Assembly (NCBI RefSeq): GCF_000007185.1
Contig: NC_003551.1
Location: forward strand, 1,050,001-1,082,000
Direction of reading: 5' to 3'
Length of the DNA: 32,000 bases
DNA from: Methanopyrus kandleri AV19
Lineage (GTDB): Archaea; JAADCQ01; Methanopyri; Methanopyrales; Methanopyraceae
Position numbers and translations under genes: made by a program. A model generated the notes under the pieces. The model saw only the letters and a program-made list of their open reading frames with translations. It was not told the origin of the DNA and did no database searches. Below are positions 1-21,114 of this stretch, piece after piece; positions within the stretch are counted from its first letter, which is position 1, and the number at the start of each line of letters is the position of its first letter.

Positions 1-953
1 AGGCTCCGCCAGTACGCCTTCATGACGAACTCTCGGAGTGCGTACATTCCGTCCCAGTCCACGCGGTACAGGAGGTCGAGCTTCTCCTCCACGGAGTCCC
101 AGAACTTGATCGCCGCCAAGGTGCCGGCGAACAGTGGCATCATGCCGACGAACGACGGGGAGTCCAGTGGGAAGTACGGGAACCCGTACTTAGACCAAAC
201 TAGGAACTTATCGAAGAACATTACTAAGTAATACGCGATTGCGGACATCATCATGACCGAGTAGTCCGCGAACGCTGCAATAGCTACTTTCAGGCTTTTA
301 ATTAGTAGATTGCCGCGCGTGAATATGGAGATTTTAGAGATTCTATTCACACCTTGGATGACATCTATGAAAGATAGTAACATCATAGCTACCAGTATAG
401 TGGAGGCTACTAAATACGCTTGGTCCGCCTCTATGATCATTAGGGAGACTATAAATGAAATTACGAAAAGGGCCCACGGCATCGTTACTCGACGAGCGAT
501 TAATCCCGGACGAGCCCAAGAAACGGCGGAATGAGCGGCCGTAAACATGTATGCTAATGTGGCCATAGGGGTCGCTATAGTGGTTGCTAGTGATATTTTT
601 ATGTTGAACAGCTGAGTTAATTCATTGTAAAGAATAATCGAACATACGGTACAAAAAATTGTCGATAATATTATGATTCCAGGTATGGGTATGAACGTTT
701 CTAGAAATAAGGTGTCTAAAATTACGCGTGAAACAAGTACTTGAAAGGGGGCGGAAGTAAGGACAGCTGCGATTAGTGAGAGGCTCACTGGAGCTAGTTT
801 CGTCGATCCTAGGACTATGAGTGTGGACAGCACGAAGATAACTCCGAGTACAGGGGAAGCGCCTAAGACGATTTTTATGAGTACGACCGGGTTACTGGCG
901 GCTCTACCTACTGAGCGGATTATCGCCACTAATGTGTCAGATATTGCGCCCAA
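1..953 (-). CDS. Polytopic integral membrane protein, C-terminus cut by window edge; putative PelG-like exopolysaccharide-synthase membrane component
   Basis: Absent from the ORF track only because it has no stop in-window. Hand check: + strand triplets starting at multiples of 3 contain no TTA/CTA/TCA from 953 down to 3, so the minus frame is open for ~317 codons. Translation from TTG 953-951: MGAISDTLVAIIRSVGRAASNPVVLIKIVLGASPVLGVIFVLSTLIVLGSTKLAPVSLSLIAAVLTSAPF... It ends at the edge with ...FPLDSPSFVGMMPLFAGTLAAIKFWDSVEEKLDLLYRVDWDGMYALREFVMKAYWRS and has many ~20-aa hydrophobic segments. A GGGGTGA SD lies 5 nt upstream of the TTG, which sits 1 nt after the stop of the upstream PelF-like gene. 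The PelG label rests on gene order and topology only. Confidence 0.6.
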   Translation of the reverse strand, partial: MGAISDTLVAIIRSVGRAASNPVVLIKIVLGASPVLGVIFVLSTLIVLGSTKLAPVSLSLIAAVLTSAPFQVLVSRVILDTLFLETFIPIPGIIILSTIFCTVCSIILYNELTQLFNIKISLATTIATPMATLAYMFTAAHSAVSWARPGLIARRVTMPWALFVISFIVSLMIIEADQAYLVASTILVAMMLLSFIDVIQGVNRISKISIFTRGNLLIKSLKVAIAAFADYSVMMMSAIAYYLVMFFDKFLVWSKYGFPYFPLDSPSFVGMMPLFAGTLAAIKFWDSVEEKLDLLYRVDWDGMYALREFVMKAYWRS

Positions 954-954
954 T

Positions 955-2430
955 TCAGTCACCCCTGGCGTATTTACAGTACTCCCGGAAGTAGTCATGA
1001 CACATGCGCATTACATCGTACTGTTTGGCGCGTTTGGTGGCATGATGTGCCATCTCGAACATTAACTCGGGATCGTAGAGTAGGCGTACCAGGTGCCTGG
1101 CGGCTTCGTCCGCGTCCTCGGATCGGAAGGTGCGACCGAAGTTCCTGTCGACTATGTACGGCACTGCGCCGACCTCGGAGGCTACTACCGGGCATCCACA
1201 GCTCATCGCCTCGAGGAGTGCCATTGGCAGTCCTTCCGAGCGGCTCGGTAGGAGGAAGATGTGGAACCTACGAAGCCACTTGACTACCTCGTCTGGAGTG
1301 CAGGGACCGTGGAACCTCACGATGTCTTCCAGGCCGTACTCCTTCACGAGTTTCCGGCACTCCTCGTAGTACGCCTCGTCTTCCACTGGGCCTACCACGT
1401 GGAACACGACATTGCCTATGTGCTCGACGGTGCGGGCCGCGATCTCGATAAGTACGTCGATACCCTTGACGCGTTCGATCCTCGTGATCGTACCGACCTC
1501 GAGCACTTCCGGCTCGTTGTACTTCCTCTCCAGGTCGCCGGGAGAGTACTTCCAGGTCTCTATTCCCGAGTAAACGACTTTGATTTTATCCTCAGGAGCT
1601 CCCTGCTCCAGGGCCAGCTCCGCGTGGTAGTCCGAGATTTCTATTATCTCCTCGCACTGCTCGTACGACGTGAGCATCATCGAGCGGAAGCACTCCTTGA
1701 AAAGCTCGCGTGTCGTCCTCCCGTACCCCTCCAGTCGCGTGTCGAGCTCCCTAAGCAGTATCCCGTGCTCGGTGATGATAAAGGGGACATTCCGTACCGC
1801 CTTCGCGACCGAGCACAGGAACCCGCATACTCCCGAGTTCTGGGCGTGCGCGACGTCACAGTTCGGTAGTCGTCTAGCGCCGGCGGCCGCCCCTAGCACG
1901 AAGGATGCTATGTTCACGGCTACCCAGAACACGTCGCTGAACGGGTTATTCTCGCACTTGTCCTCGTACTGGGAGGCTAGGTAGTGAACGTATCGTGCGA
2001 GCTCGTACATCGTGGAGCTGGCGAGTACGCTCGTGGGCGACTTGGAAACCTTCCACAGCTCCTTCAGCATTGGCTCCGAAAGTGGTTCACCTTCCACCAT
2101 CCTCTCGAAGGTGGCCCGGAGCGTTTTCGCTGCGGTCGACCACCTGAGGCGGTGTGTGGGAGTTATCCTGTCGAGCCACCGGCGCAGTTTGTTCCCCTTC
2201 GGGACGATCTCCTGAATTACAACATCCCGGACGTTTGCCGGAATTTCCACGACTGGTTCGGTTCTTTCCGGCCCCGTCATGCATAACACGTTGAACACGA
2301 CATCCGGTGAATACTTGATGAGGCGCTGGACCCAGGTGGTGACCCCACCTAAAGCTACGGGATAGGTAGCCTCGGTTACTACGGTGACAGTGGGTCGTTT
2401 GTACATCCCGCTTCCCCGAAATTCCACCAT
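955..2430 (-). CDS. GT4-family glycosyltransferase with PelF-like (DUF3492-type) N-terminal domain
   Basis: 491-aa ORF. C-terminal GT-B/GT4 signature SEGLPMALLEAMSCGCPVVASEVGAVPYIV and ITEHGI motif. The N-terminus TVTVVTEATYPVALGGVTTWVQRLIKYSPDVVFNVL...IPANV matches my recollection of the PelF N-domain pattern (LLEGTYPyv.GGVSSWv.qLI..lP...F.vl...IPANV). The GT4 call is solid; the PelF subfamily is from memory. Confidence 0.85.
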   Translation of the reverse strand: MVEFRGSGMYKRPTVTVVTEATYPVALGGVTTWVQRLIKYSPDVVFNVLCMTGPERTEPVVEIPANVRDVVIQEIVPKGNKLRRWLDRITPTHRLRWSTAAKTLRATFERMVEGEPLSEPMLKELWKVSKSPTSVLASSTMYELARYVHYLASQYEDKCENNPFSDVFWVAVNIASFVLGAAAGARRLPNCDVAHAQNSGVCGFLCSVAKAVRNVPFIITEHGILLRELDTRLEGYGRTTRELFKECFRSMMLTSYEQCEEIIEISDYHAELALEQGAPEDKIKVVYSGIETWKYSPGDLERKYNEPEVLEVGTITRIERVKGIDVLIEIAARTVEHIGNVVFHVVGPVEDEAYYEECRKLVKEYGLEDIVRFHGPCTPDEVVKWLRRFHIFLLPSRSEGLPMALLEAMSCGCPVVASEVGAVPYIVDRNFGRTFRSEDADEAARHLVRLLYDPELMFEMAHHATKRAKQYDVMRMCHDYFREYCKYARGD

Positions 2431-2588
2431 AGAGTGGTCGGCCTGGAGCTGGGTCCACGCTTCCTTCCTTTCGGTTTCTTTAGGTAATAACCCCAGTGAT
2501 AGGAGTCACCCCCGTCCGGTGTAGCCCCATCGCCCGGCGAGGAAACGGTATCTAGTACTTAATTCTTTGACTGGATGAAGGCATGTAG

Positions 2589-4142
2589 TTATCTGGTTTC
2601 GATCACTGTTGTGTCGGGTGGAACGTCCTCGGGTCGGGCGATCACTCGACACGGTCGGATCTCATCCCCCAAGTCGACCGGCCAATGGAATCCCGGGAGC
2701 ACGTCTTCGGGAACATCCACCATCTCGGCTTTCGTTCCCTCCTCGGCGTGGATCGGCGGTACCCGGGAGCTCACACAAAGTTCGGCACCCAACTGAGATA
2801 GGGTCAAGAGACCCGAGGTCGGGGGGACTGAAAAGGCCCTCTCCCCGTCGATGAGTACGCGCTGTCCGTCGAATCGGTAGTCCACGTTCTCCAACACGTC
2901 GACACCGAATTGAAACCTCGAAACGGCTCGGGGTACGTGCTCACGGAGATCCCCGGGCTCACCCTTCGTGAGATCCTCTAGGGTCCGGCGGAGCTCCTCG
3001 AGCGCCCCCCTGGAGGCGGGGTTCCCATCGGGGCGGCACGTGTAAACGACATCGTATCCTCTTTCTTCCAGCTCCTTTCCGACTTTCCGGTAACCGTCCG
3101 CGGCGTGGCACACTATCGGGAGGTCTCCCACTATCTTCTCAATAAGCGCCGCCGAGCGCTCGATCTCCTCTCGACTCCATTCCCCGGTGACTCGAACGTC
3201 GTAGTGGGCGGCGGGAAACGTCCTCTCCAGCGCCCTCGGCACGGCACCGAGTGGGCTGGTGATCATGATCTCATCCACGGGGAAATTCCACGTTATTCGC
3301 ATGATACGTCGGTGCGTGGGCGATCGTGAGTAGGGTTTCCGGGCGGAGCACGGGAGCAGGACGACCGCTTCCACCCAATCCGGGGGTTCGTACCGACGAA
3401 CGCGACGGAGCCACTCGGTGACCTCCGGACGGTCGAACGATAGGTCGGTAGCGCAGGCGATCTGGGTGTTCCGGTTCAGGTTCACGTATCGGGCGACGGC
3501 ACGTTCCCGGTCGCAGACCCGTAGGACTTCGGCGATCCTGGGGTGCCTCGCGGCCACGGACTCGACGAGTTCCCTCAAAGTGCCCTCACGGATCGCTTCG
3601 CGGAGCCTCAGCAGGCAGAACTGTAGCTGAGTCCAGTTCTCCCTGAGCAGCTCTTCGCGGTCCTCCGTCTCCACGGTCTCGGTCGAGAAGTCGTCCAACA
3701 GCAGTTGATCCTCCAGCGTCAGACGTAGACACAGTGCGGCGTCGAAGAGGTCGAACCCGAGGTAAAACAGCAGGGGGATCCATTCGGGATCTCGCACCGT
3801 CACGGCACGGACCGAGCCACTCCGACGTATCTTGCTCACTACCTCCGCGAACTCCCGAGCGTCCGGGATCGACTCGAGCCGGTACACCGTGATCGATCCG
3901 TCCGAAAGGGCTTCGGCCGGGTCCGTCCACGGGGACGGCAGGTCGTCCGGCGTGAGTCGTACGGAGTACGGCCGTGCCAGTTCCTCGAGCTCCTTCACGA
4001 GTTCTCGCACTTCGGGGACGTTCTCTACGGCGACGGACAGTCGTTCGGGGATGAGGAAGGGAGCCGGGGTTTCTACGCCCTCCACCTCGAGGACGCGCGC
4101 GCAATCACACCGAAGGACCCGGACTTTATCCCGCACCGACAC
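2589..4142 (-). CDS. arcS: Archaeosine synthase ArcS (tRNA preQ0-modifying enzyme, TGT-like with C-terminal PUA-like domain)
   Basis: 517-aa ORF with the diagnostic ArcS motif PC-x3-KPY-x2-S-x2-H, present as LLPCSARKPYSRSPTHRRI. The GTG start at 4142 overlaps the purB 3' end by 17 nt. Confidence 0.75.
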   Translation of the reverse strand: MSVRDKVRVLRCDCARVLEVEGVETPAPFLIPERLSVAVENVPEVRELVKELEELARPYSVRLTPDDLPSPWTDPAEALSDGSITVYRLESIPDAREFAEVVSKIRRSGSVRAVTVRDPEWIPLLFYLGFDLFDAALCLRLTLEDQLLLDDFSTETVETEDREELLRENWTQLQFCLLRLREAIREGTLRELVESVAARHPRIAEVLRVCDRERAVARYVNLNRNTQIACATDLSFDRPEVTEWLRRVRRYEPPDWVEAVVLLPCSARKPYSRSPTHRRIMRITWNFPVDEIMITSPLGAVPRALERTFPAAHYDVRVTGEWSREEIERSAALIEKIVGDLPIVCHAADGYRKVGKELEERGYDVVYTCRPDGNPASRGALEELRRTLEDLTKGEPGDLREHVPRAVSRFQFGVDVLENVDYRFDGQRVLIDGERAFSVPPTSGLLTLSQLGAELCVSSRVPPIHAEEGTKAEMVDVPEDVLPGFHWPVDLGDEIRPCRVIARPEDVPPDTTVIETR

Positions 4143-5580
4143 CCAACACCTCCTTCATCTCGCGATCGATCTCCTCCAGGTCGCGTCGGGTCTTCTCGGC
4201 GGCCTCACGCGCCAGGTCGGGAGCCACGCCCAAGTACTTCTCGGGGTCCAACACCTCATCTAACTCTTCTTCTCCGAACAGCTCACGGACGCGCTCTTCC
4301 TCCTTAACTACTTCCGCGAAGTCACGTCCTTCCTCCCAAGCCCTCATCGCGAGCCGTCTCACGAGCTCGTGCGCCTCCTGTCGCCCTATTCCTCGCTTGA
4401 CCAGTTCGACCATCAGTGCCTCCGCCATATTAAGCCCCTTCGTCAGCCGCAGGTTCTCCCGTATGTTCTCCTCGTAAACGCGTAATCCCTCCAAGTTGTG
4501 GATCGTCAGCCGCAGCATTTCGTCCAGCAGCAGGAACTGTTCGGGGAGGATCACCCGCTCGCTCGCGGAGTTCGTGAGGTCCCGCTCGTGTTCGAGCGGC
4601 ACGTTCTCGAGCGCTATCTGCACGTTTGACCGCAGTACCCTCGCCAGGCTACACACCCGCTCGGAACGGATCGGATTCCGCTTGTGTGGCATCGTCGAGG
4701 ATCCGACCTGCTTCTCGGGGTCGAACGGTTCCTCGACCTCCCGGATCTCCGTCCGCTGGAGGTTCCTGATCTCGCGGCCGATCTTATCCAGCGTCGAGCC
4801 GATCAGCGCGAGCAGTGCGATCAACTCCGCGTAGCGGTCCCGCTGAATGACCTGGTTGGACACGGTCACCGGCCTGAGGTTCAGCAGTTCCATCACCCGA
4901 CGCTGCACCTCAGGACCCTTCTCGCCCAGCGCCGCCATCGTTCCGACGGCACCGGACAGCTGCCCCACCAGTACCCGGTTCGCGCACTCCCGGAGTCGCT
5001 TCAGGTGCCTCACGACCTCGCGTGCCCAGATCGCGAACTTCATACCGAGCGTCGTGGGAACCGCGTGCTGACCGTGCGTGCGACCCACCATCGGGAGGTC
5101 GGCGTACTCCTCGGCCTTCTCCGCCAGCACTTCCGCTAGACGGTGCAGCCTGCGGTAGATTATCGACAGTGCTTCCCGCAGTACCAACGCGTGCGCGGTG
5201 TCTATCACGTCGTTGCTGGTAGCGCCCAGGTGCACGTAGTCCCCGCCAACCTCGCACCGCTCCGATAGCGCCTTCACCAGGGCCATCACGTCGTGTTTGA
5301 TCTCCGCCTCGATCTCCTTGACGCGTTCCACGAACCGTCGTAGCTCTTCCTCGTCGCCGGTGATCTCCTCGACGACGCGTTCCACCTCGTCCGCGGCCTC
5401 CTCCGGTACGAAGTCGAACACCTCGGAGAGCGCCCGTACCAGGGCCGCCTCAACCTCGAGCATCTTCGCCACTTTGTTCTCTTCCGAGAACACCCGGCGG
5501 AGCTCGTCCGATCCGTACCGTGACTCGATCGGATGAACGGGCAACTCAGAGCCCCCTCCGGTCGGGACGGCTCTCCGCAT
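4126..5580 (-). CDS. purB: Adenylosuccinate lyase
   Basis: 484-aa ORF with the fumarate-lyase superfamily signature GSSTMPHKRNP. N-terminal HPIESRYGSDELRRVF is typical of PurB. The true start may be a few codons downstream of 5580. Confidence 0.9.
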   Translation of the reverse strand: MRRAVPTGGGSELPVHPIESRYGSDELRRVFSEENKVAKMLEVEAALVRALSEVFDFVPEEAADEVERVVEEITGDEEELRRFVERVKEIEAEIKHDVMALVKALSERCEVGGDYVHLGATSNDVIDTAHALVLREALSIIYRRLHRLAEVLAEKAEEYADLPMVGRTHGQHAVPTTLGMKFAIWAREVVRHLKRLRECANRVLVGQLSGAVGTMAALGEKGPEVQRRVMELLNLRPVTVSNQVIQRDRYAELIALLALIGSTLDKIGREIRNLQRTEIREVEEPFDPEKQVGSSTMPHKRNPIRSERVCSLARVLRSNVQIALENVPLEHERDLTNSASERVILPEQFLLLDEMLRLTIHNLEGLRVYEENIRENLRLTKGLNMAEALMVELVKRGIGRQEAHELVRRLAMRAWEEGRDFAEVVKEEERVRELFGEEELDEVLDPEKYLGVAPDLAREAAEKTRRDLEEIDREMKEVLGVGAG

Positions 5581-5633
5581 CCCTCGTGGTCGACGGCAAC
5601 CTACCCTTTCGTCATCGGGGGTAAGTTATCCCT

Positions 5634-6806
5634 TCACCGGCGCACCGAGACCTTCTGGGCGTGCACCCTACGGAAACCCAAAGATCTGGCGTACTCTTCC
5701 AGCTCGACCATGTCCTCGTACTTGGGGAGTGGCAGGTCTCTACGCCGAAACTCCGGTCGATAGTCCAGGTAACACACCTGGACGTCCTCTCCCAGGTGCT
5801 CGTACAGCCAATCCGTCAGCGCGAAGACCTCCTCCTTGTCGACCAGCTCGGGGTTGTACGGTATCCCGACACCCACGAAGACTTCCTCCAGGTATTCGTC
5901 CGCCAGGTACTCCAGGATCCGTAGCACCCCATCTACGTACTCGGCCGCCCCCTTCACGTCTATTCCGGCCACCTCGGCGAACGTCTCGGGGCGGAACCCC
6001 TTCACGTCGATCCCTATATCCGTCATGCCCGCCTCGACCAGCTCGTCAACGTAGTCGGGGGAGAGGACCGTACCGTTCGTGTCGACGTGCACTCGGAGGT
6101 CGGGTCCGCCGTACTCACGGCACTTCCTGACGAATTCCACGAGGAACTCGCGGTTCAGCGTCGGCTCCCCACCGGAGATCGCGACGCGGTTCACGCCGTA
6201 CTCTCGGGCCGTCCCGACCAGCAGTCGGGCCGCCTCCTCCGGCCGCATCCGCGCGCCCATCGCGGCCCCGAAGGCGATCGAGTGGTTCTGACATTGAGGG
6301 CACCTGAGGTTACAACCGTGCGCGAAGCACGCCGCCTCGACGTAGCCCGGCTTGTCCTTCAGCTCGACCGGGGTCCCCACACCGCCGACGGGATGCGGCT
6401 GGAAACCGCTGACGACCCGGATCTTTCCGTCGACGTCCTCCGTCTCGACCTCGTCACCCTCGGTGAGCTTGGAGTTGCAGGCCGGAACCACCTCGCCGTT
6501 GAGCCGGACGGCGCACGCGTAGCAACCTCCCACGCCGCACGGGGCGTCGACGTCGTGTCCTATCTCCCGGAGGGCCCCTTCCACCCACCGGGATTCGACC
6601 TCGACTTCTTCCCCGTCCACCCGTACCGTGATCGGTCCTTCCTCGACCTCGACTAACCTGCGGGCGCCGTACGGGCAGGCCGGGACGCACGCGCCGCATC
6701 CGACGCAGTCCTCACGGTTCCACAGGGGATCACCGACGGGACAGTCCACCACCTGGGAGCAATAGCCGCAGTGCCTGCATCCGACCAGTCGGACTTTCCG
6801 GACCAA
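5634..6806 (-). CDS. Radical SAM enzyme (PflA/activase-like CX3CX2C core) fused to N-terminal 2x[4Fe-4S] ferredoxin and a 2Fe-2S-ferredoxin-like domain
   Basis: 390-aa ORF. Ferredoxin motifs CRHCGYCSQVVDCP and CVGCGACVPACP. A Fer2-like segment ITVRVDGEEVEV...APCGVGGCYACAVRLNGEVVPAC. Radical SAM motif GCNLRCPQCQN followed by SGGEPT. Confidence 0.8.
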   Translation of the reverse strand: MVRKVRLVGCRHCGYCSQVVDCPVGDPLWNREDCVGCGACVPACPYGARRLVEVEEGPITVRVDGEEVEVESRWVEGALREIGHDVDAPCGVGGCYACAVRLNGEVVPACNSKLTEGDEVETEDVDGKIRVVSGFQPHPVGGVGTPVELKDKPGYVEAACFAHGCNLRCPQCQNHSIAFGAAMGARMRPEEAARLLVGTAREYGVNRVAISGGEPTLNREFLVEFVRKCREYGGPDLRVHVDTNGTVLSPDYVDELVEAGMTDIGIDVKGFRPETFAEVAGIDVKGAAEYVDGVLRILEYLADEYLEEVFVGVGIPYNPELVDKEEVFALTDWLYEHLGEDVQVCYLDYRPEFRRRDLPLPKYEDMVELEEYARSLGFRRVHAQKVSVRR

Positions 6807-9785: not shown

Positions 9786-11828
9786 ATGGCCGAGCTCGCC
9801 GTCGGCATCGACGTGGGCGGCACTTTCACTGACCTGGTGGAGTACGACGGGCGGGAGCTCCGTGTCCGGAAGGTTCCGTCGTCACCCCGGCGGCCCGAAC
9901 GGGGCTTCGCGGAAGCTCTTAAAATCGTCGAGACAGACCCGGATGTTGTCCTTCACGCCACGACCATAGGGACCAACGCGTTTCTGGGTCAGAAGGGGCT
10001 TGAACTGCCCGAAGTTGCTCTCGTGACGACACTCGGGTTCCGCGACGCGATCGAGATCGGACGGCAGGTTCGTCCCCAGACCTACTCGCTGTCACCCCGA
10101 AAACCCGAACCGCTCGTACCTCGACGGCTCAGGTTCGAGGTTAAGGAGCGTACCTCACCCGACGGTGAGATCATAGTACCGGTCGACGAGGACAAGCTCC
10201 GTCGTATCGCCCGCCGTATCGCGGTCGAGGACGTCGATGTGGTCGTCGTCGCTTTCCTCCACGCCTACGCTAACCCGGCCAACGAGTGCAAGGCGAAGGA
10301 GGTTCTGGAGGAGGAGCTCGGTGACGTCGAGGTAGTATGTTCGCACGAGGTATGCAACGAATACCGCGAGTATGAGCGGACTTCGACGGCCCTCGTCAAC
10401 GCGGTCTTACGACAGATCGTCACGGAGTACGTCGAGAGGACCTGGGACGCCGTCCGCGACGCCGGTGCCTCGGAGTACTACCTGATGCAGTCGGACGGAT
10501 ACGCCGTGCCGGCCGAGCTCACCCTTCACACCCCGGCCAAGCTCATCGAGTCGGGTCCCGCCGCCGGAGTCGTCGCGGCCCGATACCTGGGTGAAACGCT
10601 GGGTAGGGACCGCCTGGTCTCGTTCGACATGGGTGGAACGACGGCTAAGGCCGGTACGGTCGTCGAAGGCCGTTACGAGGTGACTAAGGAGTACGAGGTG
10701 GGCGGTGAGGTACACAGGGGTCGTAGGGTGCGCGGTTCGGGATACCCCGTTCTTCATCGCTTCATCGACCTGACGGAGTGTAGCGCCGGCGGTGGTACGA
10801 TACTCTGGACCGACGAGGCCGGCGCGCTCCGGGTGGGACCGCTGAGCGCCGGAGCCGATCCGGGTCCGGTTTGCTACGGGAAGGGAGGTACGGATCCGAC
10901 GATCACCGACGCCAACGTCGTCTTGGGACGCCTCAACCGACGTGCCCTCCTCGGCGGCGAAATGCCCATCGACGCCGAGGCCGCCGATCGTGCGCTCTCG
11001 GAGCTCGCGGACGAGCTCGGACTCGAGCCGGAGGAAGCCGCGTACCAGGCCCTGCGCCTCGCCGTCGAGGAGATGGCCCGGATCGTGCGTATAGTCACGG
11101 TGGAGCGCGGCCACGATCCCCGCGAGTTCTCGCTGGTCGCTTTCGGTGGTGCGGGACCCTTACACGCGGCGGAGCTGGCCGAGATCTTGGAGGTCGAGGA
11201 GGTGATAGTTCCCCTCCATCCCGGCGTGTTCTCGGCGTACGGGCTCCTAGCGGCCGAGGTCGCCTGGGAACACGTCACCCCGGTCATGAGGACGCTCGAG
11301 GAGCTCGACGATGAGGAGCTGCGCGCGGTCGTGAGAGGTACCGCGGAGAAGGCGGCGGAGCGCCTGCCGAGGGAACCGGACGACGTCCGGATCGTCGTGG
11401 AAGCGAGGTACCGCGGGCAGGCGCATGAGCTCGAGGTTCAGACGGGGCCGGACGTGACGGCGGACGAGCTCGAGGAGGCTTTCCACGAGCGGCACCGCGC
11501 CGTTCACGGGTTCCAACTTAATGCCCCGGTGGAAATCGTCAACGTCCGCGCCCTCGCGGTGATCGAGCGGAAGCCACCCGAACCGAGCCCGCTCAAGGAG
11601 GGTGGAGAAGGGAACCCCAAGCGTGCGCTCGTCGAGACCCGGGAGGTGTACTTCAGGGAGGAGGGTTACCTGGAAACTCCCGTGTTCGATAGGGACGCCT
11701 TGAGGGCCGACGACATCGTCGAGGGACCGGCGGTCATCGAGCAGTACGACTCGACCACCCTCGTACCGCCCGGCTGGAGGGCACGCGTTCACAGGTCGGG
11801 TGCTATCCTGCTCCACCGGATCGAGTGA
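9786..11828 (+). CDS. Hydantoinase A / oxoprolinase / acetone-carboxylase-beta family protein (HyuA-like, ASKHA fold)
   Basis: 680 aa. N-terminal AVGIDVGGTFTD and a second phosphate motif SFDMGGTTAK. Length and architecture are typical of HyuA. Confidence 0.85.
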   Translation: MAELAVGIDVGGTFTDLVEYDGRELRVRKVPSSPRRPERGFAEALKIVETDPDVVLHATTIGTNAFLGQKGLELPEVALVTTLGFRDAIEIGRQVRPQTYSLSPRKPEPLVPRRLRFEVKERTSPDGEIIVPVDEDKLRRIARRIAVEDVDVVVVAFLHAYANPANECKAKEVLEEELGDVEVVCSHEVCNEYREYERTSTALVNAVLRQIVTEYVERTWDAVRDAGASEYYLMQSDGYAVPAELTLHTPAKLIESGPAAGVVAARYLGETLGRDRLVSFDMGGTTAKAGTVVEGRYEVTKEYEVGGEVHRGRRVRGSGYPVLHRFIDLTECSAGGGTILWTDEAGALRVGPLSAGADPGPVCYGKGGTDPTITDANVVLGRLNRRALLGGEMPIDAEAADRALSELADELGLEPEEAAYQALRLAVEEMARIVRIVTVERGHDPREFSLVAFGGAGPLHAAELAEILEVEEVIVPLHPGVFSAYGLLAAEVAWEHVTPVMRTLEELDDEELRAVVRGTAEKAAERLPREPDDVRIVVEARYRGQAHELEVQTGPDVTADELEEAFHERHRAVHGFQLNAPVEIVNVRALAVIERKPPEPSPLKEGGEGNPKRALVETREVYFREEGYLETPVFDRDALRADDIVEGPAVIEQYDSTTLVPPGWRARVHRSGAILLHRIE

Positions 11829-11830
11829 GG

Positions 11831-11934
11831 CGGGAACACTCCGGACGTGTCCTCGTGCCTGCTCGTTCCCGAGGACACAACCATCGGATGTGGCGGAGCC
11901 TTGGTGGGTCCGTTCCCGCATTGCTGACGGGAAC
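11831..11934. repeat. Cluster of inverted repeats sharing the 7-mer CGGGAAC/GTTCCCG, plus a 9-bp stem-loop, just 3' of the HyuA-like gene
   Basis: CGGGAAC at 11831-11837 and 11928-11934; GTTCCCG at 11865-11871 and 11912-11918. A perfect 9-bp inverted repeat GTGTCCTCG (11847-11855) / CGAGGACAC (11870-11878) has a 14-nt loop. Confidence 0.6.
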
Positions 11935-12012
11935 CGCCTCGGTGATAATCCCCGTCGGACTGGGAATCTTGGGGACCGTGTGTTGGCGGGGAAGGCGGAG
12001 ATCCTAGGTGAG

Positions 12013-12237
12013 GTGGTGCTGTGCGTGATCTACGGCTACAGGGTGGCCGGTGCGGTATCGGAGATCAGCGGGTCTCTATCCTCGCGCTGGTATGGACACG
12101 CGCGGTCCACGGAGGACTTGGCGGTGAGGACCGTGGAGGAACTCGGGAGGTCGCTCGGCTGGGATCCGGAGGAGGTGCGACGATGGCAGGCGATCGTGCG
12201 GACCATCGGTGACCTCGCGAGGAGGGGCCTTCTCTGA
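12013..12237 (+). CDS. Small hypothetical protein (~74 aa)
   Basis: This is the 3' part of track ORF 11800..12237. GTG at 12013/12016 lies within an AGGTGAGGTG SD-like context. The product VVLCVIYGYRVAGAVSEISG...WDPEEVRRWQAIVRTIGDLARRGLL has protein-like composition, unlike the upstream part of the ORF. No family recognised. Confidence 0.3.
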   Translation: MVLCVIYGYRVAGAVSEISGSLSSRWYGHARSTEDLAVRTVEELGRSLGWDPEEVRRWQAIVRTIGDLARRGLL

Positions 12238-12426: not shown

Positions 12427-13950
12427 TCAGGACGGCGGCTCGACGCCGGGGGTCCTGTACAGGTACACCTCGGCCCACTGACCCACGCGAACGCCCCCGC
12501 GTACGATCTCGAAGGCGCGGACCCTGACTTCGTCGGGCTCGAAGCCGGCGGCCTCGATGGCGAGCTCGACCAATTCTTCGCGACTGTACACGCGGCCCCG
12601 ATCGACTTCGAACCTCTCTCCGGCGGGAGCGACGTGTCCGTACCCGCGCTCGGTGTGTACGTAGACTACGGCTTCACGGGCGTGACGGGCGACGGCGCAG
12701 CCGACGGCGTTGCAGACGTCGTGATGGGGAACCACCTCACCGACGCCGGTTAGCTCGCGGAGGGCGGGCGCGAGGGCACCGGCCCAGAGGACGCTGTCGT
12801 GCGTCTCGAACCTCCGAAGCAGCTCCCGACGAATGGTTTCGAGGGTTTCCTCGGCCACCTCATGGGGATCGCCGAGCTCGCGGAGGACGCGACGAGACTT
12901 GGATGGATCGCCGTCGGGCTCCGGATCGTGGTATCCGGCGACTACCAGGGCGTCGGTCAGGGTGGGCTCGGAACCGCCGTAGCAGGCCGGTGTGGCGGTG
13001 TCGTTGGTGATTCCCTCACCGGTGAGGACGGCGTTGCCGCCGTACGGGAGGGAGCGGACGATGGCGGCTCGAACGGCGGTCGGATACCCGAAAAGCTCGG
13101 CCCCCTCCTCGGTGACCGGGCGCCCGCCGCGGGCCTCTGTGAGATCGATGGTAGCGCCCCCTACGTCGGCGAGGAGGAAGTCATCGCGGCCGGTGAGGTA
13201 AGCCGCACCTAGGACGCCGGCGGCGGGTCCGGAGTGAAGGACGTTGACAGGGACGCGGAGGGCCTCCTCAGGAGTCTGGAGTCCTCCGTCGCCCCGAAGC
13301 ACGCCGTCGACGCGACCGAGGGCCTCGAGGAAGCGACGGGTGACCCGTTTGACGCGGGCGCCGAGTACAGCAGTGGCGACACGGCGTGGGAAGTTGCCGT
13401 AAGGTAGGTGGTAGCCGGGGACCGCCTCGACGTAGGTCTCTCGGTGGGCTTCGATGATCTTCCGCTCCGGATCCGCGTTACGATGGGAGTGCTTCGCGAC
13501 GACGGCCAAGGCGTGATCCTCTCCGGAAGGCTCCACCGCGTCGGGGTCCGGTTCCTCGACGATGTCACCTCGATGGTCGACGTAACCGGGGAGAACGTCG
13601 GCGCGGTCGGCTAGGTCGAGGAGGGGCTCGGGGTCCAAGCCGGGACCAGGGATAAGGACGAGGTGGACGGGGTCGGTGCGACCGCGTGTAAGGGCGTTGA
13701 TCGGGAGGGTGGTGCTGACACGTCGCTCGTCGGCGTCGAGCGCGCGGAGGGCGCGACGGGTGGGTTCGAGGAGCTTACCGTCGCGCGGTACCTTGACGCG
13801 ATCCTCGACCTCTCCGTCCTCGAGGACGACGGCGTCGACGTGGGTGCTGCCGGTGTCGAGACCGAGGACGCGCATGTTCGGTCCCCCGGTGACGTCGGGA
13901 GTCTCGGTGCGGGGCTGAGCGGGGTGCGTCGGGGGCCGAGGACTAATCAT
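12427..13950 (-). CDS. Hydantoinase/oxoprolinase-family ASKHA ATPase-like protein (second, shorter HyuA paralog)
   Basis: 507-aa ORF with MRVLGLDTGSTHVDAVVL and LADVGGATIDL phosphate-binding motifs. The probable true start is the internal ATG at 13875 (MRVLGLD...), since the 25-aa extension is Pro/Thr-rich. Confidence 0.7.
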   Translation of the reverse strand: MISPRPPTHPAQPRTETPDVTGGPNMRVLGLDTGSTHVDAVVLEDGEVEDRVKVPRDGKLLEPTRRALRALDADERRVSTTLPINALTRGRTDPVHLVLIPGPGLDPEPLLDLADRADVLPGYVDHRGDIVEEPDPDAVEPSGEDHALAVVAKHSHRNADPERKIIEAHRETYVEAVPGYHLPYGNFPRRVATAVLGARVKRVTRRFLEALGRVDGVLRGDGGLQTPEEALRVPVNVLHSGPAAGVLGAAYLTGRDDFLLADVGGATIDLTEARGGRPVTEEGAELFGYPTAVRAAIVRSLPYGGNAVLTGEGITNDTATPACYGGSEPTLTDALVVAGYHDPEPDGDPSKSRRVLRELGDPHEVAEETLETIRRELLRRFETHDSVLWAGALAPALRELTGVGEVVPHHDVCNAVGCAVARHAREAVVYVHTERGYGHVAPAGERFEVDRGRVYSREELVELAIEAAGFEPDEVRVRAFEIVRGGVRVGQWAEVYLYRTPGVEPPS

Positions 13951-14527
13951 CGACGATCCGGAGCTGGAACTCCTCCCTGACCGTGCCGTAAGGACCCTCG
14001 TAGCGGACTACCAGTCGGTACTTGCCCGATTCCTCCGGTGTGTAGAATTCGAACTCCACCCAATCGCCGACCCAAACCTCAGGCTCGCTCAGGTCGATAC
14101 GACCGAGCTCGGAGTTTCCGGCACCGTTCAGACGAAACTCTAGGGTACCCTCCCACAGAGGGCCGCCGCCGCGAAGAGTGAGTAAATAAGGCCGGACGAA
14201 CACTATCGCCGAGGAGCCGGCCGGGGCCGATACCGGGGCGAAGATCTCGAGCGTCAGCGCTACTCCGCGGACCCGGGAGATGACGACGGTCGGAACGTAC
14301 TTAAGACCCAATCGAGCCATCGACCTCTCCCACTCCAGCCGCGCGTCCTCCTCGGGATCGATGGGGGTCAATCCCCGGCCCCCTTCGACCCGTCCGGGCG
14401 ACGGCGCTGGCCCTTGGGCCCCGCCCTGTTTCTCCACGAAAAAGCCTTGCGGACGGTTAGGGTAACCACCGTCCGCTGTCTTCGGCGTACGGGGGCCGTA
14501 CGATGGATCGCACGGCGGTTCGCTCAC
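13943..14527 (-). CDS. Hypothetical protein with beta-rich C-terminal domain
   Basis: 194-aa ORF. The N-terminal 69 aa are low-complexity Gly/Pro-rich. An alternative start at ATG 14320 (MARLGLKYVPTVVISRV...) has a GAGAGGT SD-like motif. No family recognised. Confidence 0.5.
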   Translation of the reverse strand: MSEPPCDPSYGPRTPKTADGGYPNRPQGFFVEKQGGAQGPAPSPGRVEGGRGLTPIDPEEDARLEWERSMARLGLKYVPTVVISRVRGVALTLEIFAPVSAPAGSSAIVFVRPYLLTLRGGGPLWEGTLEFRLNGAGNSELGRIDLSEPEVWVGDWVEFEFYTPEESGKYRLVVRYEGPYGTVREEFQLRIVDD

Positions 14528-14770: not shown

Positions 14771-15700
14771 TCACAACCCCTCGACGAGGACGGCGAGTTG
14801 GCCTAAAAGCAGCGATCTGATCGCCTTCGGTACGAGAGCTTCCGTCATCCGCGCGGACTTCCTCATGGCGTCTTCTACGGTATCGCGGTCTACACTCCAG
14901 CCGTCCGAAGCCAGCCGTGTCCCGACTTCGAGTATCGAGATCCAGAAGGCCGCCGCGAGCTCCGATGGTCCGTTGCGCAGCGCGCTGCGTACCCGAAGCT
15001 GCTTCCAGTACCGCTTCACGGAGTCCATCCACCACTCCAGTGTTTCCCCCTGGGGTGCCTCCAGTCTAATGGCTCCTAACCCCTCTACGGCTCTCTCACC
15101 GAGCACCTCCGCTACGGCGGTGAGCACCGGATCGACCACGTACCTCCGACCGTCCACGATCAAGTCCAGATCGGAGAAGTCCGCGACGTCCTCCGGACGT
15201 ACCTCGGCGGCGCTCACGACTCGGAAATCGGTCGGGTGAAGTCCTGTGTCGATTCTCGGGATTGGGAGGGTCAGTCCCGTCACGTCTAGGTTGAGCGCCT
15301 CGGGTGCGTGCCTCTCGAACTCCTCGGGCGGACCGTGACGCGCGTCCCACGTGGCTATGAACATCAGCCCACGGTTCAAAGCGTCCCCGGCTCGGTCCAA
15401 GATGCGACGGGCGGCGTCCGGACCCGCGTCGTGGACGTCGTGGATCGATATCCCGGACTCCGGGTCGCCCACGCCCCGGTAGACCAGCAGGTCGTCGGAG
15501 AAAAACACGTGGGCACCCACGTTAACGTCACAGAGCAACTCAGTGGTAGCCACCATCAGGCAGCGACTGGAGCGGATGATTTCGCAGTTCTTCCCGCGGC
15601 AGCTCTCACAAGGTAGGTGCTCGACGAAGACCGGCGCGAAACCTCGGGCTGCGGCTAAAACCGCCACCATCGCGGCGTAGCTGAACTCCATATGCGGCAT
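14771..15700 (-). CDS. Hypothetical protein with N-terminal Cys cluster
   Basis: Track ORF runs 14771..15988, but the first 96 codons are an Arg/Pro/Gly-rich shadow. ATG 15700 (or 15691) follows a GGGGAGG SD, giving M(PHM)EFSYAAMVAVLAAARGF...LPCESCRGKNCEIIRSSRC... with acidic, genome-typical composition. No family recognised. Confidence 0.6.
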   Translation of the reverse strand: MPHMEFSYAAMVAVLAAARGFAPVFVEHLPCESCRGKNCEIIRSSRCLMVATTELLCDVNVGAHVFFSDDLLVYRGVGDPESGISIHDVHDAGPDAARRILDRAGDALNRGLMFIATWDARHGPPEEFERHAPEALNLDVTGLTLPIPRIDTGLHPTDFRVVSAAEVRPEDVADFSDLDLIVDGRRYVVDPVLTAVAEVLGERAVEGLGAIRLEAPQGETLEWWMDSVKRYWKQLRVRSALRNGPSELAAAFWISILEVGTRLASDGWSVDRDTVEDAMRKSARMTEALVPKAIRSLLLGQLAVLVEGL

Positions 15701-16238
15701 CCTCCCCTGACCGCACGGTGCGAGCCGGGGCTTCGACTGACCGTGGCTTGGGTAGATTTGTCCGAGCGTTCGGTAGCACGGTCCCCGTGCGTCGTGTTCC
15801 GCTCGACCGGGTCGGGATAGGGGGACCGTCTCCCTGGTTCCGAACCCTCGACGGCACCGAACGAGCCCGACGGACACTGCTAGGACGCGGGATGGGAAGT
15901 GTACCGGGGCGTCGGAGGTCGAAGCGGGAGTTGGTTCGTGGTCCCCGGCCGTAATCGGGTACGCGCGCCACTCGCCGCGCCTCGGCAATAAGGGACGTCG
16001 TCACCCGTCGGTAAGCCGGCCTGTCGTCATCGGAGCGTGCTTCCGTGGAAGTTACGGGACGACTCCGGAAGTTCGGCGACGCGCGCGGACGCGGTAATCG
16101 TCATCATTCCACGATTACGTCGGCACCCGATGACTTTTCGATGCGGGCGCGGCGCACGGGAGCCGGGCCGATTCACACGAAAGGTTTAGGCGGCGTGAGC
16201 CGTCCGGGCGGCCGTACCGTCGGTGAGACGGCCGTACA

Positions 16239-17360
16239 TCAGCCAATCATCCGCCGGAGTGTCTCAACCGATGACTCTACTTCCACCCCTCCACCGACCG
16301 GGAGTTCCACACCACCCAACGCCGAGGCCCGCTCGATGACCTCGTCCGCGTGTTCCACTCCGATGAGGTTCTGAATCCTCTTGATCCTCGAGTACAAGCT
16401 CTCCTGGGCGCCCTTCTCTTCCCACAGGGGGTCGTACTCCTTCGGCTCTATCTCGATCCATCCTACCCTCACCGTCGCTCCCGAGTTCAGGATGTTCTCC
16501 GCGAGCTCCGTCGGCTGTGACAGAAGCTGTATCAGCTCCGCGGCCCTCTCCACGGTGTCCACGAGTATGTCCGATATCCATCTTTCCACCCGCTCGTCCT
16601 CGATTTCCAGAGCTGCGATGGCCTCCTCCAGGTATCCGTTGAGGAGCTCCAGTTCCTCCACGGGACCGAGCTCGACGTTCTCCAGAGGCTCGGCCAGCTC
16701 TTCGAGTGGGGGAAGCCTGTTCGCGCACGTATGACAGAGGAGTGTGAAGATCGTCCAAACCCGGGCCGGTGATGCGAACTTCGGGACGATGTCTCCGTAT
16801 TGAATCTCCAGCGACGGGAGCGCCTCGACGATGCACTGGTCCGTGTCTACCGCCTTGGCCACGAGCTCGGCGGCCTTCCCGAGGTCCTCGTCCTCTAAGA
16901 ACCCTTCCGTACACGCCATGAGCGCGACTTCTACCAGCAACGGACCCGCTACGGTCTCTAGGCAGGGTTCTTCGAGGTACTTGGGTACCGCCGATAGGAA
17001 GGCACGACGTATCTCCAGTAGGTACCCGAGTGCGACGTCTGGTGTTTCGGTAACTTCTTCGAGGGCCACGCGAAGCTCGAACACACCGCTCAACGACCAT
17101 CGGGTGATTCGCTCCACGGCATCGACCAGTGTAGCAGGATCATCCAAAACCTCTTCCAAAAGGAACCGAACCGGATGAACGTGATGGATCTCCTCCCCTC
17201 GAAGTGCGCGGACGAGCGGTTTATCCGGGTCAAGCGTCGAAATCATCGCGCGCCGAAAGAGTTCGAAGTTCTCGAGCACCTCACAAGGTTCCGATACCGC
17301 GGCGTGTAACTTCTCCAGCACCGACGGTTTCGGACGGACCGGGACCTCCCACCACTTCAA
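16239..17360 (-). CDS. Acidic helical protein of unknown function, paralog A of a tandem pair
   Basis: 373 aa with a TTG start. Collinear with 18430..19566 over the full length through shared blocks LEKLH, PCE.L..FE.FRR, HP.RFLLE, VEVALMAC, RVW.IF.LLCHTCANR and EYDP.WE. A 24-nt identical DNA stretch occurs at 16912-16935 and 19121-19144. Confidence 0.8.
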   Translation of the reverse strand: MKWWEVPVRPKPSVLEKLHAAVSEPCEVLENFELFRRAMISTLDPDKPLVRALRGEEIHHVHPVRFLLEEVLDDPATLVDAVERITRWSLSGVFELRVALEEVTETPDVALGYLLEIRRAFLSAVPKYLEEPCLETVAGPLLVEVALMACTEGFLEDEDLGKAAELVAKAVDTDQCIVEALPSLEIQYGDIVPKFASPARVWTIFTLLCHTCANRLPPLEELAEPLENVELGPVEELELLNGYLEEAIAALEIEDERVERWISDILVDTVERAAELIQLLSQPTELAENILNSGATVRVGWIEIEPKEYDPLWEEKGAQESLYSRIKRIQNLIGVEHADEVIERASALGGVELPVGGGVEVESSVETLRRMIG

Positions 17361-18429: not shown

Positions 18430-19566
18430 TCACCTCATCCTCCTCTTCCTGAGCTCCTCGATAGAGTCATCGAGGAGGTCGTCAAGCGCGTCGTCGCCCA
18501 CCAACTCGCCCGCTTCTTCCATGTCCAGCTCGTACAACCGCTCGACCGCCCCGTTTGCTTCCTCCTCCACGAGCTCACGAACGCGCTCCACGACCGACTC
18601 GTGTACTTCCTCCTGTGGACCCGGCTCCCAAATGGGGTCGTATTCGCCCGGCTGTATTTCGACTTCGCCCAAACGGATCACGGCACCCGCTCCGGGTATC
18701 TTCACCGCCAGCTCCTCCCATCGGGAAAGGGTGTCCGCGAGCTCCAACGCGTGTTCCACGCTGTCCACCAGAATCGAGCCCACCCAGCGCAGAACCTCCT
18801 CGTCGTCGATCCCCAACCCACCTACCGCTTCATGGAGTGCTTCTCGCACCGAATACTCTATCTCATCTATCGGCCCCGGTCTGAGCTCCTTCAGCGGTTT
18901 CACCAGTTCTTCCGGCGGGACGGTACGGTTCGCGCACGTGTGACATAGCAGTGCGAAGATCACCCAAACCCGAGTCGGCGACGCGAACCTCGGAACTAAG
19001 CTCCCGTACCGTACCCCCAGTTCCGGAAGGAGCTCTAAAACCCGCTCGTCCACACCCACCCCGTCGGCCACGTACTCGGCGGCTTCCTTCAGATCCTCAC
19101 GTTCCAGGAGTCCTCCCGCGCACGCCATGAGCGCGACTTCTACCGATAGTGGCTCCAGCACGCTCTCCAGACCCGGGTCTTCCAGGTATTCCGGGGTTCT
19201 CCGTACGAAGAACCGCCGTAGCTGAAGGAAATGCAGGAGGACTATCTCCGCGGGATCGACGGTACCCCTCAGTCCCTCCCAGAGCCCGGATACGCCGCTT
19301 ATCGTCCAGTGTATCAGCCGCTCCGCGGCTTCCGCCAGCGTACTAGGGGTGTCCAAGACCTCGAGGAGAAATCGTATCGGATGTGTCTCCTCGATTCCCT
19401 CGCCCTTCAGCAGTCCCGCGAGACCTTCACAGGACTCGAGCGTCGAGAGTACCACCCGTCGGAAGATCTCGAAGTCCCCGAGGGTCTCGCAGGGCTTCGG
19501 CATCGCCACGTGCAGCTTCTCCAATGCGGATTCCTCCGGTTGGAGCGGATCGTTCCAATCCAACAC
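18430..19566 (-). CDS. Acidic helical protein of unknown function, paralog B of the tandem pair
   Basis: 378 aa with a GTG start. The N-terminus aligns position-for-position with paralog A (LDWNDPLQPEESALEKLHV vs KWWEVPVRPKPSVLEKLHA). It has the same four conserved Cys and a highly acidic C-terminal tail. Confidence 0.8.
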   Translation of the reverse strand: MLDWNDPLQPEESALEKLHVAMPKPCETLGDFEIFRRVVLSTLESCEGLAGLLKGEGIEETHPIRFLLEVLDTPSTLAEAAERLIHWTISGVSGLWEGLRGTVDPAEIVLLHFLQLRRFFVRRTPEYLEDPGLESVLEPLSVEVALMACAGGLLEREDLKEAAEYVADGVGVDERVLELLPELGVRYGSLVPRFASPTRVWVIFALLCHTCANRTVPPEELVKPLKELRPGPIDEIEYSVREALHEAVGGLGIDDEEVLRWVGSILVDSVEHALELADTLSRWEELAVKIPGAGAVIRLGEVEIQPGEYDPIWEPGPQEEVHESVVERVRELVEEEANGAVERLYELDMEEAGELVGDDALDDLLDDSIEELRKRRMR

Positions 19567-20067: not shown

Positions 20068-21114
20068 GTGCTCGAGACTATCCTTCTGGCCACCGTCGCC
20101 TGGACGGTTCAGGACCACGATCAACCTTTCGCCACATATTGGCAGGACGTGAAGTTTTGGGAGATCCTGGAGCGACACCCGCGCACGCTCGTCGTCGATC
20201 CCTACTGCGGTCCCGACGACCGACCTTGGACCAAGGACGAGATCCGCACCCTACGCGAGCACGGTGTGAAACCCGTAGCGTACCTATCACTTGCCACGGT
20301 CGGCAAGCACCAGACGGACCTGTACAGTCTCGCGGAGGAGAAGGGACTCCTCGGTCCGCGGGACCCGTACTGGGAAGGGGACCGTGCAGTTCGATTCTGG
20401 GAACGCACCTGGCTCGACGCCCTCCGCACCAAGTTCGAAGAATTACGGGACCTCGGCTACGAGGGTGTGTTCATCGACGTTGTGGACCCGTGGACTCTGG
20501 ACTGGTACGTTAAGTGGTTCCGTCGCGAAACCGGCGAGAACTTGGAGAAACTGCGTGAGTTAACTTACGATGCACTCGAGGAACTCATTCAGGCGGCACT
20601 ACACCTCGGCCTCGAAGTCTACGTGAACGTCGGGGGCGCGATCTTCGATCCAAAGCTCGCCGAGCTCAAGGAACGTTACGGGTTCAAGGTCGTCGTTGAG
20701 GACGTGATCACCGACGATGAGGGTAATCTCGTCCCGGACGACGTGTTCCGTGATTACCTGCGCGCCCTCGCACACCTAGGCTCGGGCGTGTACGTGATCG
20801 AGTACGACCTGACGATGACCCCCGAGGTGAACGAGCGGCTCGAAGAACTCTTCGCGGAGACGAAGGTGGAGGCGGTGTACGTGACCTCGCTCGACCACGA
20901 TCGACTCGGGATCGACATAGTTCCCATCAAGGCTCCGGTGAACCCGTCGGACACCTCGGGGAGCTCGGGGGAGGAGAAGGCATCGTACACGCGGGAGAAC
21001 GAGGAAGACTTGGAGAGAATCCCCGTGGAGGAGCTCGTGGAGGAAGGTCCGAAGAAACTGCCGGTGATCCCGATAGTTCCTCCGGTGCGTCGACGATGCC
21101 TATCGCATGGGTAA
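20068..21114 (+). CDS. GH114 / TM1410-like TIM-barrel protein (putative endo-alpha-1,4-polygalactosaminidase-family glycosidase)
   Basis: 348 aa with a GTG start behind a GGGTGGGAGGG SD. KPVAYLSLATVG...DPYWEGDRAVRFWERTW...LRDLGYEGVFIDVVDPW matches the remembered family pattern (AYlSiGe.e..R.Y...W.Gn..vryW...W...l...GfDGvfLD.vD.y). It has a short hydrophobic N-terminus (LETILLATVAW) and an acidic C-terminal tail. Confidence 0.65.
   Translation: MLETILLATVAWTVQDHDQPFATYWQDVKFWEILERHPRTLVVDPYCGPDDRPWTKDEIRTLREHGVKPVAYLSLATVGKHQTDLYSLAEEKGLLGPRDPYWEGDRAVRFWERTWLDALRTKFEELRDLGYEGVFIDVVDPWTLDWYVKWFRRETGENLEKLRELTYDALEELIQAALHLGLEVYVNVGGAIFDPKLAELKERYGFKVVVEDVITDDEGNLVPDDVFRDYLRALAHLGSGVYVIEYDLTMTPEVNERLEELFAETKVEAVYVTSLDHDRLGIDIVPIKAPVNPSDTSGSSGEEKASYTRENEEDLERIPVEELVEEGPKKLPVIPIVPPVRRRCLSHG

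Follow-up and report, generated by a model that had tools for sequence, protein, structure and literature searches.

We analysed a 32,000-nucleotide stretch of the Methanopyrus kandleri AV19 genome (assembly GCF_000007185.1, contig NC_003551.1, positions 1,050,001 to 1,082,000 of the forward strand; hereafter "the window"), at the left end of which lie two reverse-strand genes related to pelF and pelG, the glycosyltransferase and membrane-protein genes of the bacterial Pel exopolysaccharide system. A previous sequence-only reading had proposed that they encode a translationally coupled PelF/PelG-like pair in a hyperthermophilic methanogen-type genome, and the host is indeed Methanopyrus. The features at the locus are the following:

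1..953, (-) strand: pelG-like gene for a polytopic membrane protein; first 317 codons, from a TTG at 953-951, open to the window edge
264..953, (-) strand: segment of pelG with low G+C content at third codon positions (GC3), codons 1 to ~230; boundary approximate
951..965, (-) strand: coupling junction; GGGGTGA at 965-959, pelF stop codon TGA at 957-955, one base, TTG at 953-951
955..2430, (-) strand: pelF-like gene for a retaining glycosyltransferase of family GT4 with a DUF3492 N-domain; stop codon at 955-957
2431..2588, (-) strand: intergenic region of 158 nucleotides between an arcS-like gene (DUF5591) and pelF, from the map of open reading frames (ORFs) and the sequence

The pelF-like and pelG-like genes

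The pelF-like ORF encodes 491 residues from the ATG at 2430 and 483 from a second ATG at 2406, the latter being the start used by public gene calls. It contains the blocks TVTVVTEATYPVALGGVTTWVQRLIKYSPDVVFNVL, IPANV and ITEHGI, all of which had been noted before and ascribed to a DUF3492-type domain. This ascription is borne out by Pfam, since DUF3492 (PF11997) covers residues 14-281 along the whole model (E 6.1e-74; positions 2-268 of 268), with Glycos_transf_1 over residues 311-469 (E 2.3e-31). The protein is PelF-like rather than a generic GT4 enzyme, as had also been claimed: it scores 158.4 bits on the NCBIfam PelF equivalog NF038011 (curated cut-off, 100 bits), colinearly over model positions 2-486 of 489, while all other GT4 equivalog models stay far under their own cut-offs (Agl16, 68 bits versus 575). 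A paralogue and the Korarchaeota relatives described below score 152-160 bits on the same model.

We aligned 17 sequences from Methanopyrus, Korarchaeota and bacterial PelF-like proteins, with identities of 25-90%. Invariant in this alignment are TEATYP..GGV..W in the N-terminal part, TEHG...RE, R309, K314 and the E391-x7-E399 pair. R309, K314, E391 and E399 are the catalytic or uridine diphosphate (UDP)-binding residues, the same as in bacterial PelF, to which the Methanopyrus protein is 25-30% identical. An AlphaFold2 model (predicted local distance difference test, pLDDT, 87; predicted template-modelling score, pTM, 0.85) shows a GT-B fold whose best structural matches in the PDB are MshA and BshA, two retaining enzymes that use UDP-N-acetylglucosamine (UDP-GlcNAc). 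This use by the fold neighbours is not decisive for whether the PelF-like enzyme polymerises alpha-1,4-N-acetylgalactosamine (GalNAc) from its UDP-linked form. Relative to MshA and BshA (~390 residues), a helical insertion of ~100 residues (~70-180) is predicted within the N-terminal Rossmann half. The sequence-only reading had put DUF3492 upstream of the GT-B half, and this point has to be corrected: in the model DUF3492 is the N-terminal half of the GT-B fold plus the helical insert, with no separate domain ahead of the fold.

The membrane gene starts 1 nucleotide past the pelF stop codon. As read directly from the sequence, and in agreement with the earlier claim, the order at the junction is GGGGTGA, CTGAA, TTG, which leaves a spacer of 5 nucleotides between the Shine-Dalgarno-like motif and the TTG. 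An alternative in-frame GTG, 9 nucleotides upstream of the TTG, gives an 8-nucleotide overlap with pelF and is the start used in another strain. Tight spacing is general among the archaeal loci that we compared: in six of six (the window; L012, from another Methanopyrus lineage; L011 and L013, from a deeper Methanopyri lineage; L009, a paralogous locus; and L010, of Korarchaeota type), pelG either starts no more than 6 nucleotides from the pelF stop or overlaps pelF. The pelF-pelG promoter presumably lies in 2431..2588; a scan with sigma-70 promoter and terminator models, which are not applicable to archaea, gave nothing above chance.

The membrane ORF had been described as longer than 317 codons and leaving the window. 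It is open for these 317 codons, and public Methanopyrus contigs complete it leftwards to a gene of 497 codons (L002, 5955-7448). The exact 483-residue PelF-like protein was found on eight assembled contigs, the 491-residue form having no exact match; nor had the 484-residue lyase ORF. Six of the eight contigs were retrieved; L001, L002 and L003 reach more than 5 kb past the pair, and one is a 204-kb contig of GCA_013329715.1. L001 and L002 are base-identical to the window over the aligned 1,000 nucleotides (window 1-1000, comprising the 3' end of pelF and part of the membrane gene).

The identity of the membrane protein was less straightforward. Its 317-residue fragment reaches only 16 bits (E 0.0058) on the Pfam PelG model (PF16933), under the gathering threshold of 29 bits, and the full-length 497-residue protein has no Pfam or NCBIfam match even at E <= 10. 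Since no family matched the full-length protein, we turned to its orthologues and to profile-profile comparison. The orthologue P0005, 59-66% identical and named in NCBI 'exopolysaccharide Pel transporter PelG [Methanopyrus sp.]', scores 38.2 bits on Pfam PelG over model positions 64-443 of 452, above the threshold. Other relatives score lower (P0004, from L012, 21 bits; the paralogue P0045, 16.6; the paralogue copy at L009, 13.3), and P0046, P0048 and the L011 membrane protein do not match Pfam PelG. Nevertheless, PelG is the sole Pfam family found at E <= 0.01 for any member of the membrane family. The remaining Pfam matches are at chance level (DUF2798, E 0.023; Pol_alpha_B_N, 0.12-0.27; DUF5438, 0.75), and the Polysacc_synt, MurJ and MatE models gave no match at E <= 1 in ten family members. 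A Wzx, Wzy or MATE identity, which the earlier reading had named as the thing to check for, is therefore not what the family models indicate.

An hhalign comparison of nine archaeal sequences with 31 bacterial PelG proteins gave a probability of 96.5% (E 7.5e-10, score 82.0, 253 columns), whereas the reversed PelG alignment scored 20.2 and shuffles in blocks of 20 columns (n=15) scored 26.5-38.3. The archaeal motifs S-R-x3-D, F-D-K-x3-W and P-L-D (S-R-V-I-L-D, F-F-D-K-F-L-V-W and P-L-D in the archaeal protein) align on R80/D84, D234/K235/W239 and D257, which are invariant or nearly so in bacterial PelG, with F and L in the places of the bacterial W232 and Y256. D248, K249, F284 and W285 are invariant across the archaeal family, as is its C-terminal tail, YRVVAYNAFVSYVTEIP. 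An AlphaFold2 model of the protein (pLDDT 71.6, pTM 0.75; residues 339-387 of low confidence) has ~14 helices, and its top PDB matches all belong to the MOP superfamily (MATE, WzxE and MurJ; template-modelling (TM) scores 0.45-0.54); hydropathy counts of transmembrane segments were too noisy to give a helix number. PelG itself is assigned in the literature to the MOP superfamily, with 12 helices cited (PMC13254593).

These four lines (orthologue scores, profile-profile comparison, aligned motifs and MOP fold) establish homology to PelG. The earlier identification stands as regards the family, through the orthologue and the hhalign comparison, and fails as regards the Pfam score of the window protein itself, which is most fittingly called a divergent homologue of PelG outside strict Pfam membership. 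The two genes are thus true archaeal homologues of PelF and PelG. The same data bear on the idea that a generic GT4 enzyme happens to lie beside an unrelated transporter. The weak Pfam match of the window fragment speaks for such a chance adjacency, but the orthologue scores and the profile-profile comparison with its scrambled controls demonstrate PelG homology, and the adjacency recurs at the paralogous locus, in Korarchaeota and in bacterial pel operons; we regard this explanation as effectively refuted.

Distribution, synteny and codon usage

When 5.8 billion proteins were searched through a word index, six PelG-like matches were obtained, all from Methanopyrus, and an exhaustive hidden Markov model search of 1.84 billion cluster representatives returned only six PelG-like relatives. 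P0005, P0006, P0045 and P0048 could be traced to assemblies of Methanopyrus or 'Methanopyri archaeon', P0046 and P0047 being untraced. The exhaustive profile search did not find the family in the pseudomurein-containing Methanobacteriales and gave no bridge to other archaea. Found by this search only in Methanopyri, the family has a distribution that counts against a role in the core cell wall.

In every retrieved Methanopyrus contig of sufficient length and in L012, the order is DUF5591 (arcS-like), pelF, pelG, UPF0004/radical-SAM. The same order is found in the deeper Methanopyri lineage (L011 and L013), where PelF is 49% and PelG ~24% identical to the window proteins. The maintenance of synteny and of intact genes through this divergence therefore implies purifying selection. 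As the sequence-only reading had stated, an arcS-like gene (2589-4142, (-) strand) adjoins pelF; on the other side, a MiaB-like UPF0004/radical-SAM gene (L002, 7454-8725) begins 5 nucleotides past pelG and may be co-transcribed with the pair.

A second, paralogous pair is present at an unrelated locus of the Methanopyrus metagenome-assembled genome GCA_054026675.1 (L009, 10001-13000). Its PelF is 55% identical to that of the window and its membrane protein has 505 residues. In Methanopyrus sp. SNP6 the PelF of this second pair is broken into two pieces, of 122 and 364 residues, and the P0005 PelG carries an internal deletion of ~50 residues.

The pelG gene has a mosaic codon usage. In the window, GC3 is 0.32-0.53 over codons 1 to ~230 and 0.72-0.95 thereafter, the neighbouring genes having values of 0.74-0.81. 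In L012 (8563-11491), GC3 is as low as 0.07-0.3 over ~400 codons of pelG and drops in pelF too, while in L011 (11449-12966) the low tract occupies pelG codons ~100-260; the paralogous pelG2 has a uniformly high GC3. The PelG proteins of the window and L012 are 38-74% identical over the first 400 residues, rising to 89-94% over the last 100. The sharp, strain-specific boundaries suggest repeated allelic replacement or recombination from an unsampled low-GC donor, for which the exhaustive profile search found no candidate in the databases. Comparable allelic replacement takes place at bacterial O-antigen and wzx loci, whose typical low-GC, hypervariable character is shared by the window pelG.

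Atypical codons could also mark a relic. If the pair were the decaying or silent remnant of an ancient bacterial transfer, devoid of function in this strain, the composition of the first ~230 pelG codons, the split paralogue of SNP6, the deletion in P0005 and the missing partner genes (see below) would all be accounted for. However, both ORFs are intact, with ~490 residues each, the catalytic residues are invariant, the Shine-Dalgarno-like motif and the tight coupling are preserved, and synteny with intact genes at 49% (PelF) and 24% (PelG) identity requires purifying selection. We therefore consider a relic improbable. The split paralogue, the hypervariability of pelG and the failure of the exhaustive search to find the family in other archaea with pseudomurein fit better with an accessory surface or matrix polysaccharide than with a core component of the wall. 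A role in pseudomurein synthesis or N-glycosylation was likewise ranked lower, given the neighbouring genes and the restricted phyletic distribution.

As for precedent, the claim that such a pair had not been characterised in archaea agrees with our full-text literature searches, in which no paper on Pel genes in archaea was found; two systematic surveys of pel operons are bacterial only and do not mention archaea (PMC7112168, PMC7112194). On the other hand, the RefSeq pipeline labels Methanopyrus relatives 'GT4 family glycosyltransferase PelF' and, for one of them (P0005), gives the PelG name quoted above. With such automatic labels already in place, the identification was reachable with standard tools, and what is new is the setting and the lack of partner genes (the pair being archaeal, duplicated and cut down to an FG core), not the protein family.

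Comparison with bacterial and archaeal systems

We found no GAF/GGDEF-like (PelD), TPR (PelE) or deacetylase protein in the ~10 kb to each side of the pair or anywhere in the 32-kb window, the rest of the genome lying outside this search; the apparent lack of adjacent pelA-E genes noted from the sequence thus holds over that distance. There is no PelD- or PelE-like gene at the paralogous locus L009 either. The recognisable genes of the flanks and window belong to tRNA modification (DUF5591, MiaB-like radical-SAM, PP-loop ATPase) and metabolism (adenylosuccinate-lyase family, hydantoinase, nickel-insertion protein, aldehyde dehydrogenase), together with Alba, CBS and PII proteins and several ORFs without a family match.

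The Methanopyrus pair resembles PelDEFG of Pseudomonas aeruginosa (operon pelABCDEFG) in having a DUF3492/GT4 enzyme with the conserved R/K and E-x7-E residues, followed by a MOP-fold PelG in the order pelF-pelG. It differs in that PelD, the receptor of cyclic di-GMP (c-di-GMP), and PelE, PelA, PelB and PelC were not found locally, in the archaeal host, which has no outer membrane, and in the PelG, which is under the Pfam threshold and ~50 residues longer. As a bacterial control, the Spirochaetales locus L007 displays the canonical set of PelB-like TPR, GAF, TPR, PelF and PelG (214 bits) proteins; a profile scan of contigs with PelF gave at least two bacterial loci among the matches listed. 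A further point of comparison is the pelDEA(DA)FG operon of Bacillus cereus ATCC 10987, a reduced system with a pelF and pelG core in a single-membrane cell (PMC7112168). First-pass searches in Gram-positives likewise gave only pelF and pelG (PMC7112194), but divergent PelD and PelE and a PelA deacetylase were later found adjacent, all of them required (PMC7112168). The Methanopyrus flanks, in contrast, consist of tRNA-modification and purine genes and hold no such candidates.

Fuller pel-like clusters do exist in archaea, as revealed by a Korarchaeota-type contig (L010, from JGI metagenome 3300014887). At 2034-6462, (-) strand, a TPR protein, PelF, PelG and a protein of the short-chain dehydrogenase/reductase (SDR) epimerase/dehydratase family are encoded in one block. 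The PelF is the nearest one outside Methanopyri (29% identical; 152 bits on the PelF model), and the PelG gene, whose product passes Pfam (46.6 bits), overlaps its pelF by 4 nucleotides. The locus is like that of the window in combining an archaeal DUF3492 glycosyltransferase with an overlapping or adjoining PelG gene, and unlike it in its flanking genes, one for the SDR protein and one for a small TPR protein of PelE-like kind. Its PelG also differs in passing Pfam and shows no particular affinity to that of Methanopyrus; the archaeal PelG-like profile compared with this single sequence gave an uninformative probability of 7%. The SDR protein, which is GalE/TviC-like and of the NAD-dependent sugar epimerase/dehydratase family, is under every equivalog cut-off, and a PelX-like epimerase role for it is a guess. 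The same contig carries, at 10001-12081, (+) strand, a second DUF3492 glycosyltransferase gene followed by one for a 207-residue protein without a family match.

The pair may also be compared with Wzx or MurJ flippases that work with a GT4 enzyme, since the MOP fold and a cytoplasmic GT4 partner are common to both. Because the fold is shared and PelG's own mechanism is unproven, an alternative stands in which the pair belongs to a lipid-linked glycoconjugate pathway: the GT4 enzyme would transfer a single sugar, or a small number of them, onto a membrane lipid or a carrier of dolichol or undecaprenol type, and the membrane protein would be a Wzx/MurJ-like flippase, the product being a glycan of the S-layer or surface proteins, a glycolipid or a pseudomurein decoration. 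In keeping with this alternative, the PelG-like model fits MATE, WzxE and MurJ, which are carrier-lipid flippases, to a similar degree (TM scores 0.45-0.54), and its predicted ~14 helices are as in MurJ, whereas PelG is cited with 12 (PMC13254593). Further, MshA and BshA, the solved GT4 structures nearest in fold, catalyse single transfers, and the PelD and PelE of the bacterial synthase mechanism are absent locally. The sequences themselves are less favourable to it: that of the membrane protein is PelG-specific, with no Polysacc_synt, MurJ or MatE match at E <= 1, and the enzyme passes the PelF equivalog and no Agl or Pgl model (Agl16, 68 bits versus 575). Nor are the neighbours those expected, being tRNA-modification and purine genes instead of agl, aglB or cell-wall genes, with no gene near the pair for a Wzy polymerase, for an initiating phosphoglycosyltransferase or for a regulator of chain length, and the exhaustive search showed the family to be absent from other pseudomurein archaea. 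Overall, we regard a lipid-linked pathway as the most serious competitor, possible though rather unlikely.

Possible function of the pair and surrounding genes

The interpretation that we favour, with some reserve, is that the pair is a minimal Pel-type synthase and exporter core, independent of c-di-GMP and differently regulated, which would make an accessory surface or extracellular polysaccharide. The physical interaction of the two proteins, the donor sugar, the polymer product, the export role and the biological function are all points that we infer, along the following lines. Expressed as a translationally coupled unit with PelG, the soluble PelF-like GT4 enzyme would act at the cytoplasmic face, take a UDP-N-acetylhexosamine donor and build an alpha-linked glycan at the membrane with retention of configuration. 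It would dock on the MOP-fold PelG-like protein, probably through the helical insertion specific to DUF3492, the invariant cytoplasmic C-terminal tail of PelG being another candidate contact surface, and the PelG-like protein would carry the product through the membrane and out to the cell surface. Pseudomurein biosynthesis passes through UDP-N-acetylgalactosamine (UDP-GalNAc), and because methanogens with pseudomurein already make this compound, it is a plausible donor. Bacterial PelF polymerises UDP-GalNAc when PelD binds c-di-GMP (PMC13254593, PMC12022489, PMC7112168). The regulation of the Methanopyrus pair must be different, for archaea are not known to use c-di-GMP signalling, and it is for this reason that we describe the core as differently regulated.

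One gene of the window could encode an accessory to this core:

20068..21114, (+) strand: GH114-like TIM-barrel protein of 348 residues (Pfam PF03537, 39.8 bits; cut-off, 27)

The PelA hydrolase domain belongs to the same Pfam family, and in a phmmer search against the PDB the protein matched TM1410 (1e-7) and the PelA hydrolase domain (5tcb and 9cgy, ~2e-4). By sequence, it is a possible, unproven accessory enzyme that could act on a polymer of GalNAc and galactosamine (GalN). Its gene lies 17.6 kb from pelF, outside the operon.

Several points weigh against a Pel-type core, beginning with the failure of the window PelG to reach the Pfam threshold and of the full-length protein to match any family. 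The local absence of PelD, PelE and deacetylase is a second one, since in bacteria a single complex contains PelD, PelE, PelF and PelG, each of which is required (PMC7112168, PMC12022489). Third, lacking deacetylation, the polymer would not be the cationic Pel. As for the GH114-like protein, its match is weak and shared with the wider MJ1477/TM1410 group (36.6 bits on TIGR01370, far under the cut-off of 181), and it has no obvious export signal, a crude hydropathy scan having revealed neither a transmembrane segment nor a signal-like region. Finally, MOP proteins typically flip lipid-linked oligosaccharides, and we know of no experiment that establishes the function of PelG even in bacteria.

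A bolder version of the Pel-type reading is that of a self-sufficient synthase of two proteins in Methanopyri, in which PelF and PelG alone would both build and export an exopolysaccharide of GalNAc type at ~100 °C, dispensing with c-di-GMP receptor, scaffold and deacetylase, and in which the membrane component would have been repeatedly replaced through recombination with an unsampled low-GC donor. This version we consider doubtful. The pair is of interest in that Pel ranks among the chief polysaccharides of bacterial biofilms. For the standing questions of how PelF cooperates with PelG and why PelD and PelE are needed, a thermostable archaeal pair lacking the latter two would offer a naturally minimal model in which to study polymerisation and export by structural and biochemical means. 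A two-protein synthase, if confirmed, would mark out what is irreducible in the Pel machinery, and it would bring matrix polysaccharides of synthase type into the Archaea, in which little is known of biofilm-matrix genetics. The importance of the pair should not be overstated, however, Pel-like polymer synthesis being an inference.

Some other genes of the window deserve mention. Upstream of the arcS-like gene, two genes away, lies a radical-SAM gene with a ferredoxin domain (5634-6806, (-) strand). Long ORFs of 194, 405 and 429 residues, putative genes at 13943-14527 (-), 14771-15988 (-) and 21241-22530 (+), respectively, have no Pfam match at E <= 1e-4. Two further ORFs, at 16239-17360 (-) and 18430-19566 (-), are separated by ~1 kb with small ORFs. 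Neither has a Pfam match, and they encode paralogous proteins of 373 and 378 residues, alike along much of their length, as in LEKLHAAVSEPCEVLENFELFRR of one and LEKLHVAMPKPCETLGDFEIFRR of the other.

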